Assembly: GCA_016215405.1 (NCBI GenBank)
Contig: JACRJQ010000002.1
Coordinates: forward strand, 1 to 57,596
Reading direction: 5' to 3'
Source of the DNA: Candidatus Tayloriibacteriota bacterium
GTDB lineage: Bacteria > Patescibacteriota > Minisyncoccia > Phycocordibacterales > UBA6065
Length of the DNA stretch: 57,596 nt
This document shows positions 47,785-50,065 of this stretch, one piece after another. The translations under genes and the position numbers were made by a program. Each line of letters starts with the position of its first letter. The first letter of the stretch is position 1. Under the pieces are notes generated by a model. That model was given only the letters and a program-made list of their open reading frames with translations, was not told the origin of the DNA and searched no databases.

Positions 47785-49182
47785 CTATTTCAGAGGCTTT
47801 TTCACCGATATGCCGAGCTCGAGGAGCTGTTCGGCTGACACGTCGGACGGAGCCTTCATCATGAGGTCCCTGCCCTCTCCTGTTTTTGCGAACGCGATCA
47901 CTTCGCGGATGCTCTGCTCGTTCTCGAGTATGGTCATGAGCCTGTCGAGTCCCCAAGCGATGCCGCCGTGCGGAGGCGTTCCCGATTCGAACGCGCGGAG
48001 CATGTGCCCGTATTCCCTCTCGATCTTCTCCTCGCTGAATCCCATAATCTCGAGGACCTTCCTTAAGGCCTCCGGCCTATGGTTTCGGATAGAGCCGCCT
48101 CCGATCTCGTTTCCGTTGAGCGTGATATCGTATTGCGCCGCGACGATCTTGTCTATGTTCGTCTTCGCCATGAGGTCGCCCATGGACTCTGGCTTCGTAC
48201 CCGAGAACGGGTTGTGGGTGAACGTCCACGCGCCCTCATCCGTCTTTTCGAACATCGGAAAATCTACGATCCAAGCGAATGCGAGGAGGTCTGGGTCGTT
48301 CTTGTCCGTACGGATGTCCGGCTTGTCGGAATTATATTTCTCCATCGCCACCTTGTACGGTATCCGAGGGAAAGGGATCTCTTGGATCTTCTTGTGGGGA
48401 TAGAGCGTCTGCACTATCTCGATGAGGGCCTTTTCGTTGAGGTTCATCACGTCTTCCTCTGTCGCGAAGCTCATTTCGAGGTCCATCTGCGTGAATTCAG
48501 GCTGCCTGTCTCCGCGGGAGTCTTCGTCTCTAAAGCATCGGGCGAACTGGAAGTATCTCTCGAAACCCGCCGCCATGAGGAGCTGCTTGAACTGCTGAGG
48601 CGCCTGCGGCAGCGCGTAGAATTTGCCCTTTTCGAGCCTCGACGGGATTATGAAGTCCCTCGAACCCTCGGCTGTCGCGATGGTGAGGTTAGGCGTCTCG
48701 ATCTCGCAAAAGCCCGCCCGCTCCAGGATCTTCCTCGTGAGGAGCATTACCTTGTTCCTGTTCCTGATGTTCTTTTGCATTCGAGGCCTCCTGAGGTCGA
48801 GATAGCGGTGCGTGAGCCTCGATTCCTCTCCGATCTCGCGACCGTCGCCTCGAACGTCTATCGGAGGCGTCTGCGCCTCGTTGAGGACCGTGATGCTCAA
48901 GATCTCAAGCTCGATCGAGCCGTTCTGCTTGTCCTTTTGGACGTTCTTCTCGGGGCGAGGATTCACCTTGCCGTGCACTTCGACGACCCACTCCGGGCGC
49001 ACCCTCGAAGCCGTCTCCATAGCGGGAGATTTCGGCAGGACGACGCCCTGGACGTAGCCGGTCATATCCCTGAAATCGAGGAAGATGAGCTTGCCCTGGT
49101 CGCGTCGGACGTCGACCCAGGCCTTTATGACGGCTTCGCCGCCCTTCTTCGATTCGAGATCCTTTATGTATGTTCTTTCCAT
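47785..49182 (-). CDS. aspS: Aspartate--tRNA ligase, short form without GAD domain (probably non-discriminating)
   Basis: RYLDLRR, LPQAPQ.FKQLL, CFRDED.R.DRQPEFTQ, PPHGG.A.GLDR; 465 aa. Confidence 0.95.
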   Translation of the reverse strand: MERTYIKDLESKKGGEAVIKAWVDVRRDQGKLIFLDFRDMTGYVQGVVLPKSPAMETASRVRPEWVVEVHGKVNPRPEKNVQKDKQNGSIELEILSITVLNEAQTPPIDVRGDGREIGEESRLTHRYLDLRRPRMQKNIRNRNKVMLLTRKILERAGFCEIETPNLTIATAEGSRDFIIPSRLEKGKFYALPQAPQQFKQLLMAAGFERYFQFARCFRDEDSRGDRQPEFTQMDLEMSFATEEDVMNLNEKALIEIVQTLYPHKKIQEIPFPRIPYKVAMEKYNSDKPDIRTDKNDPDLLAFAWIVDFPMFEKTDEGAWTFTHNPFSGTKPESMGDLMAKTNIDKIVAAQYDITLNGNEIGGGSIRNHRPEALRKVLEIMGFSEEKIEREYGHMLRAFESGTPPHGGIAWGLDRLMTILENEQSIREVIAFAKTGEGRDLMMKAPSDVSAEQLLELGISVKKPLK

Positions 49183-49224
49183 ACGATTTCTATTAGCCTA
49201 ATAATCTTGGGGTCGATCTTTCAT

Positions 49225-49413
49225 AAAAAAGCGCCCCTTCGAATACGACTGTCGTCATATCCGCAGGGGCGATTTCATCGCGGTGCCACCCTGTTTCTTG
49301 TCCGCCTTGGGCGAACTCTTTTTGTTACCGCCATCGGGGCGATTCCGTGGGATTCTACGGCCCTTAAAGGCTTTCCTTCCCTAACCTCGCCGGCGTTACC
49401 CGGGTCATCGGTA
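49225..49413 (-). promoter_or_regulatory. T-box riboswitch (transcriptional) with ultrashort Stem I
   Basis: AGGGTGGCACCGCG T-box (49292-49279), CGCCCCT antiterminator, AGGGGCG-CTTTTTT terminator, directly upstream of aspS. Confidence 0.9.
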
Positions 49414-49435
49414 TGTCTAGATTAACCCGAACGAC

Positions 49436-50065
49436 TCAAATCGACAAGTTTGCTATCCGGTTCCGAACCGCCTTAGCAAGCGCTAGGTGCGCAGCCTCAT
49501 CAAGGTGGTAACCGTCTATCGCGCTCGATGATATGTGGTCGCCTGCATTCAGGAACTCGCATCCCATTTTCTCTGCGACACGCTTGAATAGCCCTGGCAG
49601 ACTCTCGAATTTCTCAGAAGCGCGCTCCATCCGCGGGTCTATCTTGCCGTCAGACGGCGTGATCACTGACGGAGGGCAGATCACCAGGATCTTCGGGGTC
49701 TCTTCCATATCCAACTCGTCGCTTTGAATGAGACCGATCGTCTCTTCGAGGTGCGAGGCTATATCCTCTGAGCTCAGGCTGTAGGTAGATTTGACGTCAT
49801 TCGTCCCGAGCATGACTATGACGAGATCGAGGGGTGCCGCGCTCTCGAGGAGGGCACGGAGGTGAGTAATGCCCGTCCGATGGGGTCTTTTCGGGTCTAG
49901 AGCGACGAACGTTCTGCCGCAGAGGCCCTCGCTTATGACCTCATATCCCTCGCCGAGGAGCTCTTGGAGAGCACCTGGCCAGCGTACGCTCTTGGGATAC
50001 CGCGCGTCGCTTCGCGGCACGTTGCCCCATGTGTTCGAATCTCCGTAGCAGAGGATGGTTTTCAC
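49436..50065 (-). CDS. SGNH/GDSL hydrolase
   Basis: GDSNTWG, MLGTND, DGYH. Confidence 0.92.
   Translation of the reverse strand: MKTILCYGDSNTWGNVPRSDARYPKSVRWPGALQELLGEGYEVISEGLCGRTFVALDPKRPHRTGITHLRALLESAAPLDLVIVMLGTNDVKSTYSLSSEDIASHLEETIGLIQSDELDMEETPKILVICPPSVITPSDGKIDPRMERASEKFESLPGLFKRVAEKMGCEFLNAGDHISSSAIDGYHLDEAAHLALAKAVRNRIANLSI

Follow-up and report, generated by a model that had tools for sequence, protein, structure and literature searches.

A T-box riboswitch of reduced architecture occupies the leader of aspS on the minus strand of the window (the whole stretch of DNA that was analysed, 57,596 nucleotides in length), where it probably acts by transcription attenuation and reads uncharged tRNA-Asn. 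The leader is 190 nt long and separates the stop codon of a gene for a GDSL-family hydrolase (49436-50065) from the start of a gene for a class II synthetase; Pfam and NCBIfam identified both flanking genes. An earlier note, made from the letters of the window, had proposed a hybrid T-box here, with an ultrashort Stem I presenting an Asn specifier and coupled to a transcription terminator. When the sequence was checked, every element that it named was found at its place on the minus strand, with correct coordinates. The features of the leader and of the gene that follows it are collected in Table 1.

Table 1. Features of the aspS leader and the aspS gene, in window positions
Feature	Position	Strand	Description
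T-box leader	49225..49415	(-)	
Stem I	49384..49412	(-)	CCGAUGA-C-CCGG-[GUAACG]-CCGG-CGAGG, 29 nt; no distal platform
Stem I parts	49384..49412	(-)	3-bp base helix ACC/GGU; K-turn (5' GAUGAC, 3' CGA); 4-bp helix CCGG/CCGG; 6-nt end loop GUAACG
Predicted specifier AAC (Asn)	49395..49397	(-)	loop positions 3-5; purine G49394 next
Stem II	49349..49381	(-)	lower helix GGGA/UCCC; S-turn-like internal loop AGGAAA vs GUAGAA; variable upper hairpin
Stem IIA/B pseudoknot	49329..49347	(-)	IIB CGG/CCG crossing IIA CGCC/GGCG
Stem III	49300..49316	(-)	7-bp hairpin in minimum-free-energy fold; palindrome also picked up by consensus scan
T-box sequence and antiterminator	49264..49293	(-)	helix A1 CAGGG/CCCUG; 7-nt bulge UGGCACC (UGGC 49288-49285); helix A2 GCGAU/AUCGC
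Intrinsic terminator	49225..49271	(-)	17-bp hairpin 49271-49232, then C, then UUUUUU 49230-49225
aspS	47785..49182	(-)	465 aa; bacterial-type AspRS without GAD insertion domain; only AspRS gene of the genome

Anatomy and expression platform of the aspS leader

The Rfam T-box model RF00230 matches positions 49262-49417 (-) with the entire model covered (E 4.2e-8, 42 bits), and the same leader is recovered when the whole genome is searched (E 2e-8). Within this match the T-box sequence, AGGGUGGCACCGCG...CGCCCCU, is aligned to model positions 183-216 with high posterior probability. Together with the covariation among orthologs described below, the match bears out the identification of the leader as a T-box. 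The score of 42 bits stays below the gathering score of the model, 93, because the distal part of Stem I is missing: 73 Stem I positions are deleted in the alignment, and the long-Stem-I features that the model describes (the specifier internal loop, the AG bulge and the elbow-binding distal loop platform) are absent from the leader. A scan of the entire window at Rfam gathering thresholds returned zero matches, the T-box becoming visible only with E-value thresholds, and standard annotation therefore overlooks it.

Two details of Stem II speak against this leader as a working switch: its lower helix contains one A-A mismatch, and the first base of the S-turn is C, where most orthologs have A. 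The Stem IIA/B pseudoknot, which the earlier note had not mentioned, is present and covaries.

The 5' arm of the terminator is also the 3' arm of the antiterminator, so the two structures overlap. Folded alone, the terminator reaches -28.8 kcal/mol (z -6.5; equalled by 0 of 200 shuffles) and the antiterminator -10.7 kcal/mol, and the default state is therefore expected to be termination. By a folding heuristic applied to the first two leader sets, a terminator hairpin and, after it, four or more U are found in 47 of 49 orthologous AspRS leaders; in one of the two that fail (L020) the U run is interrupted. These energies and the similar arrangement in the orthologs agree with the earlier claim that a terminator, and not a Shine-Dalgarno sequestrator, is the expression platform. 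A simple terminator scan missed this hairpin, which has a long stem with a 1x1 internal loop, and the assignment rests on folding.

A different reading would make the leader a translational switch of the kind formed by the short-stem T-boxes of Actinobacteria, with the hairpin and U run merely incidental. All characterised T-boxes with an ultrashort Stem I are indeed described as translational in the accessible part of PMC7583486, and the two IleRS leaders without a U run that are described next could be cited in its favour. We nevertheless consider it very unlikely for the aspS leader: the antiterminator shares its 3' arm with a hairpin of considerable stability that is directly followed by six U, the terminator arrangement recurs in nearly all orthologs by the heuristic above, and the start codon is found about 42 nt past the U run, outside any alternative pairing. 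No Shine-Dalgarno sequence was seen on inspection of the switching region.

Two GC-rich IleRS leaders from our phylum sample (L172 and L177) share the short-stem design, have no U run and carry GAGG near the start codon. Judged by their sequences, they may be translational versions within Patescibacteria.

A promoter scan of the minus strand found no promoter; by eye only, an 8/12 match to a promoter, TTGTCG-17-TAATCT, can be made out at 49447-49419 (-). On the opposite strand, a 448-aa open reading frame (48079-49425, +) runs antisense to aspS and spans the leader. We regard it as a side effect of the GC-rich coding strand and not as a gene.

Conservation of the fold and related leaders in Patescibacteria

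To 15 orthologous AspRS leaders, aligned with MAFFT without structural input (alignment A1), we applied the structure drawn from the window leader. Bases pair in 87.5% of the cells of this alignment, compared with 35-48% (at most 47.8%) once the 3' partners are shifted, and 16 of the 29 pairs show compensatory changes on both sides. None of 500 shuffles attains the observed values, although the leaders share descent and the counts are not independent. Pair counts were taken from the MAFFT alignment, as alignments fitted to the covariance model built from it (R1) lean towards the model.

Covariation is seen in Stem I, Stem II and the pseudoknot. In the 4-bp helix of Stem I, pair 13-26 is CG in 11 rows and GC in 4, and pair 15-24 is GC in 11, UA in 3 and CG in 1. 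The lower helix of Stem II has changes on both sides in 4 of its 5 pairs (74.7% of cells paired). In the IIA/B pseudoknot, helix 4 changes from GC to AU in 3 rows, and all 4 pairs of helix 5 change on both sides. The antiterminator helices 6 and 7 are paired in 100% and 97.3% of cells, respectively, and all 15 orthologs share an identical T-box core. Stem III is absent from most rows of the alignment.

At a threshold of E 0.001 or better, R1 matches 42 of the 151 genomes in the order sample and 37 of the 151 in the phylum sample, counts that include leaders of other synthetases. One match without a T-box motif (L134) was left out as a false positive. Matches to RF00230 below its gathering threshold occur in 30 of 61 related genomes, and matches above it in 0 of 61. 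At least 7 of 49 orthologous leaders measure 114 nt or less; the S-turn string is missing from them, and they are too short to accommodate Stem II and the IIA/B pseudoknot. In a locus search based on AspRS, 8 of 80 loci belong to close relatives; a T-box is present in just one of the eight (L034).

Three aspS leaders are super-minimal (L025, 1548-1649; L026, 1459-1588; L027, 1443-1568). They have neither Stem II, IIA/B nor III, and consist of the Stem I hairpin, about 30 nt that look unstructured, and then the antiterminator and terminator.

One might suspect that the window leader is a decaying relic which no longer regulates. Its score lies below the Rfam threshold, certain orthologs no longer have Stem II, IIA/B and III, and close relatives, for instance a Candidatus Taylorbacteria record whose AspRS is 75% identical, have no T-box motif upstream of aspS. 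Yet all functional parts of the window leader are intact, its helices are maintained by compensatory changes, its T-box core does not vary and its terminator is strong; decay is almost surely the wrong description.

The whole-genome RF00230 search revealed a second T-box core in the same genome, before thrS and outside the window (G000, contig C6:159843-159927, +; locus L002). It too is short-stemmed and followed by a terminator, with ACC in the loop CUACCAA and UGGA in the bulge, and a short linker takes the place of Stem II and Stem III. The tRNA-Thr genes of the genome have U73, which matches this UGGA.

In several leaders of relatives (L011 and L014, and also L004, L007, L012 and L018), the T-box has a Stem I that is longer and looks conventional, with UGGC or UGGU in the bulge. 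The reading frame downstream of L011 resembles anthranilate synthase component I and that downstream of L014 anthranilate phosphoribosyltransferase, as judged by eye from the translations. Stem I thus occurs in both designs within the group.

The regulated enzyme, its two tRNAs and the specifier codon

The gene downstream of the leader is aspS, as the earlier note had it: its product scores 591.5 bits against NF001750 (cut-off 443) in two stretches, with model positions of about 297 to 425 skipped, and Pfam recognises tRNA-synt_2 and an OB anticodon-binding domain. Its closest named relatives are Candidatus Taylorbacteria records (75% identity), Zambryskiibacteriota, Paceibacterota and the Patescibacteria group, which makes the organism a member of the candidate phyla radiation. 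In the assembly (836 kb in 8 contigs, rated 100% complete) no asnS scores over the cut-off; the matches to the asnS model are the AspRS itself and, on contig C3, a 510-aa open frame that we take to be LysRS, both far below it. The genes gatA and gatB score over their cut-offs, and a gatC-like gene that adjoins gatA falls just under (46.3 bits, cut-off 47.1). The genome thus agrees with the asnS absence and gatCAB presence that the earlier note had proposed to look for. Genes for tRNA-Asn(GUU) and tRNA-Asp(GUC) are both present, and inspection showed that both have G73 and are complementary to the UGGC bulge, again as the earlier note had supposed.

In the transamidation route, an AspRS without an AsnRS partner must charge both tRNA-Asp and tRNA-Asn. 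Since this genome has tRNA-Asn and GatCAB and no AsnRS, we infer from its gene content that its AspRS must be non-discriminating. The same background extends to the relatives: asnS over the cut-off was found in 0 of 61 related genomes, while a bacterial-type AspRS without GAD scores over the cut-off in 34 of the 61 and an archaeal-type one in 25. With AspRS predicted to serve two tRNAs across the group, both GAC and AAC therefore make functional sense as specifiers.

Some gene arrangements stand apart from this general pattern. In one related genome (G017; L021, contig C8:4153-7138), a single AAC leader precedes a tandem of an archaeal-type and then a bacterial GAD-less AspRS. The genome of the window encodes an asnB-type asparagine synthetase (contig C5:9839-11395, +; 468.8 bits, cut-off 267.1), although it has no AsnRS to use free asparagine for translation. 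Two further genomes encode paralogs (G016, C3:28928-30196; G029, C3:62768-64018) that score 262 and 258 bits with the asnS model against 236 and 244 bits with the archaeal AspRS model, all below the cut-offs, and may be divergent AsnRS-like enzymes.

We read the loop triplet of 57 AspRS leaders from Patescibacteria (55 preceding an AspRS gene and 2 at contig ends) from covariance-model columns. The alignments place the triplet at one and the same loop position in all 57 leaders, in line with the ultrashort Stem I carrying its specifier in the end loop that had been proposed, and the triplet is GAC in 35 leaders, AAC in 22 and anything else in none. Two loci with GAC or AAC loops (L123 and L141) have no AspRS reading frame directly downstream and were excluded from the 57. 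An automatic hairpin finder was tried for the loop codon and dropped, having picked the wrong hairpin in about 11 of the 57 leaders.

Leaders of the same architecture that precede other synthetases carry the corresponding codon in the loop: AUC in 11 of 11 IleRS leaders, GUC in 8 of 8 ValRS leaders and ACC in all 7 readable ThrRS leaders, that of the thrS gene mentioned above included. The loop codon hence tracks the amino acid, as the earlier note had suggested checking, and this supports the assignment of the specifier. Among the AspRS leaders the codon is literally not conserved, a finding which the earlier note had said would count against its reading. The variation is, however, confined to codons of the two tRNA substrates of the enzyme, and therefore supports the specifier role, while Asn sensing becomes a property of the species and not of the family.

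The distribution of the two codons follows neither enzyme type nor phylogeny in any obvious way. AAC is found in 16 of 38 leaders of bacterial GAD-less enzymes and in 5 of 17 leaders of archaeal-type enzymes, and no correlation of AAC or GAC with enzyme type was found in this comparison. On a tree of 33 bacterial-type AspRS sequences, from which L008 was left out for its shortened reading frame, at least 9 changes between GAC and AAC are needed; with shuffled labels the number averages 10.0, and it is 9 or lower in 93 of 300 shuffles. On a tree of 13 archaeal-type sequences (L136 left out), 4 changes account for the AAC rows. The specifier of AspRS leaders thus appears to switch often between GAC and AAC, almost without phylogenetic inertia at this sampling.

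Changes nearly as frequent as in shuffled labels, seen on the bacterial-type tree and echoed by the 4 changes among 13 archaeal-type rows, could also mean that the first codon position is only loosely read. The loop would then work as R-A-C, both tRNA-Asp and tRNA-Asn would bind, and the pooled charging of the two would be sensed; tRNA-Asn would pair with a GAC loop by way of a first-position G-U, and the binding of tRNA-Asp to an AAC loop would be weak. The shared G73, which fits UGGC in either tRNA, is compatible with this, and T-boxes of dual specificity are reported in Clostridium acetobutylicum in the accessible part of PMC4574755, which cites Saad et al. On the other hand, AAC against the anticodon GUC creates a first-position A-C mismatch, and the first position is only G or A in 57 of 57 leaders, each perfect for one of the tRNAs, a pattern that strict reading with frequent re-specification predicts equally. 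We judge relaxed reading to be unlikely.

The specifier might instead be sought at the base of Stem I, where a GAC triplet (49406-49404) forms part of GAUGAC, 7 nt upstream of the loop; the leader would then sense tRNA-Asp, as in most relatives. In the Rfam alignment, however, these bases fall on the conserved UGA of the K-turn, and so belong to the K-turn and not to a loop. Their third base varies (C, A or U, column 12 of A1) whatever the loop codon, and when Asp, Ile, Val and Thr leaders are compared, it is the end loop that covaries with the identity of the enzyme. A specifier within GAUGAC is therefore exceedingly unlikely, and we retain the AAC of the end loop as the probable specifier.

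The anatomy as observed, conserved and covarying among orthologs, suggests how the leader would work, and so do the fit of codon and discriminator to the tRNAs and the gene content. The nascent RNA would fold the K-turn-based Stem I and present AAC in the 6-nt end loop, and Stem II and the IIA/B pseudoknot would pack against Stem I as in the solved complexes of actinobacterial ileS T-boxes (PMC7583486), jointly holding the anticodon arm of tRNA-Asn (GUU). If this tRNA is uncharged, its G73-CCA end would pair with UGGC and stabilise the weak antiterminator, and RNA polymerase would read through into aspS. If it is charged, with Asp or Asn, the stronger terminator would form and transcription would end at the U run. 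Since tRNA-Asn charged with either amino acid could not lock the antiterminator, the switch would monitor the output of AspRS and not amidation, and since AspRS would charge both tRNAs, either of them could report that output. The species of the window would accordingly be one that reads tRNA-Asn, most of its relatives being predicted to read tRNA-Asp. Either the two tRNAs are nearly equivalent as reporters and the codon drifts between them, or in some lineages the poorer substrate is the more sensitive reporter.

Taken further, these observations raise the possibility, which we put forward tentatively and would not yet favour, that Patescibacteria have their own phylum-wide class of T-box. 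Its members would stop transcription and capture tRNA without an elbow-binding platform, some of them with barely more than a Stem I hairpin and an antiterminator, and the specifier of the AspRS leaders would have been rewritten repeatedly by single G/A transitions between the codons of both substrates. If this is true, the AspRS leaders form a natural series of re-specified riboswitches, and either tRNA is an equally good reporter of a non-discriminating synthetase.

Comparison with known T-box systems

The leader shares with canonical transcriptional T-boxes (RF00230; for example Bacillus subtilis tyrS and glyQS) the T-box sequence, the alternative between antiterminator and terminator, the K-turn, a specifier that corresponds to the regulated synthetase and a bulge that matches the discriminator. 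In contrast to them, it has no specifier internal loop, AG bulge or distal loop platform. As far as the accessible part of PMC7583486 states, transcriptional T-boxes generally require a long Stem I with an elbow-binding platform, function is compromised when the platform is disabled, and a long Stem I is needed for fast tRNA capture during transcription, a short one going with slower translational control. A short Stem I coupled to a terminator fits this kinetic reasoning uneasily. Conserved and covarying short-stem T-boxes on terminators are a direct counter-example to the long-Stem-I rule, and one that is open to in vitro testing.

T-boxes with an ultrashort Stem I upstream of ileS in Actinobacteria were reportedly described by Sherwood, Grundy and Henkin in 2015. 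The window leader resembles these T-boxes (Mycobacterium and Nocardia; TBDB "class II"), to the extent that the accessible parts of the sources describe them, in its K-turn, its short helix, its specifier in the end loop and the purine after the codon; it likewise has no elbow-binding distal platform, retains the S-turn of Stem II and the IIA/B pseudoknot, and has the same UGGN bulge. In this ultrashort class, the Stem II S-turn and the IIA/B pseudoknot are said to compensate for the missing platform (PMC7583486, accessible part). The output differs: as described in the same partial sources, the actinobacterial leaders free or hide a Shine-Dalgarno sequence and so act on translation, whereas the window leader has an intrinsic terminator instead. 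The setting differs as well, the actinobacterial class preceding ileS, and the window leader, in Patescibacteria, preceding aspS and probably reading Asn, with relatives in its phylum before ileS, valS, thrS and aspS. The class II model of TBDB, according to the accessible part of PMC7778990, was searched only in Actinobacteria and among class I matches with a truncated Stem I. Because standard annotation overlooks leaders of this kind, regulation in the candidate phyla radiation is under-called.

An Asn-specifier T-box that controls tRNA-dependent asparagine formation in C. acetobutylicum has reportedly been described by Saad et al. (J Biol Chem in 2012 and PNAS in 2013). That leader is likewise said to use an AAC specifier to govern a non-discriminating AspRS. 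It is said to have a long conventional Stem I and to head an operon that includes gatCAB and asnB, and the same genome reportedly encodes an AsnRS as well. By comparison, Stem I of the window leader is ultrashort, only aspS follows it, gatCA and gatB are located elsewhere and there is no AsnRS.

The earlier note did not recognise its combination of features as described. For control of the tRNA-dependent Asn pathway through an Asn specifier this does not stand, given the C. acetobutylicum precedent. It does stand for the ultrashort Stem I coupled to a terminator, for which no paper was found among the searchable literature; a search for full-text literature on T-boxes in Patescibacteria, the candidate phyla radiation or Parcubacteria likewise found none.

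The alternation of GAC and AAC provides matched natural pairs for the question of how a T-box changes its tRNA, and these pairs also bear on which substrate best monitors a non-discriminating AspRS. The smallest relatives could define a minimal tRNA-sensing RNA and be useful for engineering tRNA-responsive switches. What is new here is the quantified alternation between GAC and AAC and how labile it is on the enzyme trees, together with the Ile, Val and Thr members whose loop codon tracks the amino acid, and the gene-content background against which these leaders are found.
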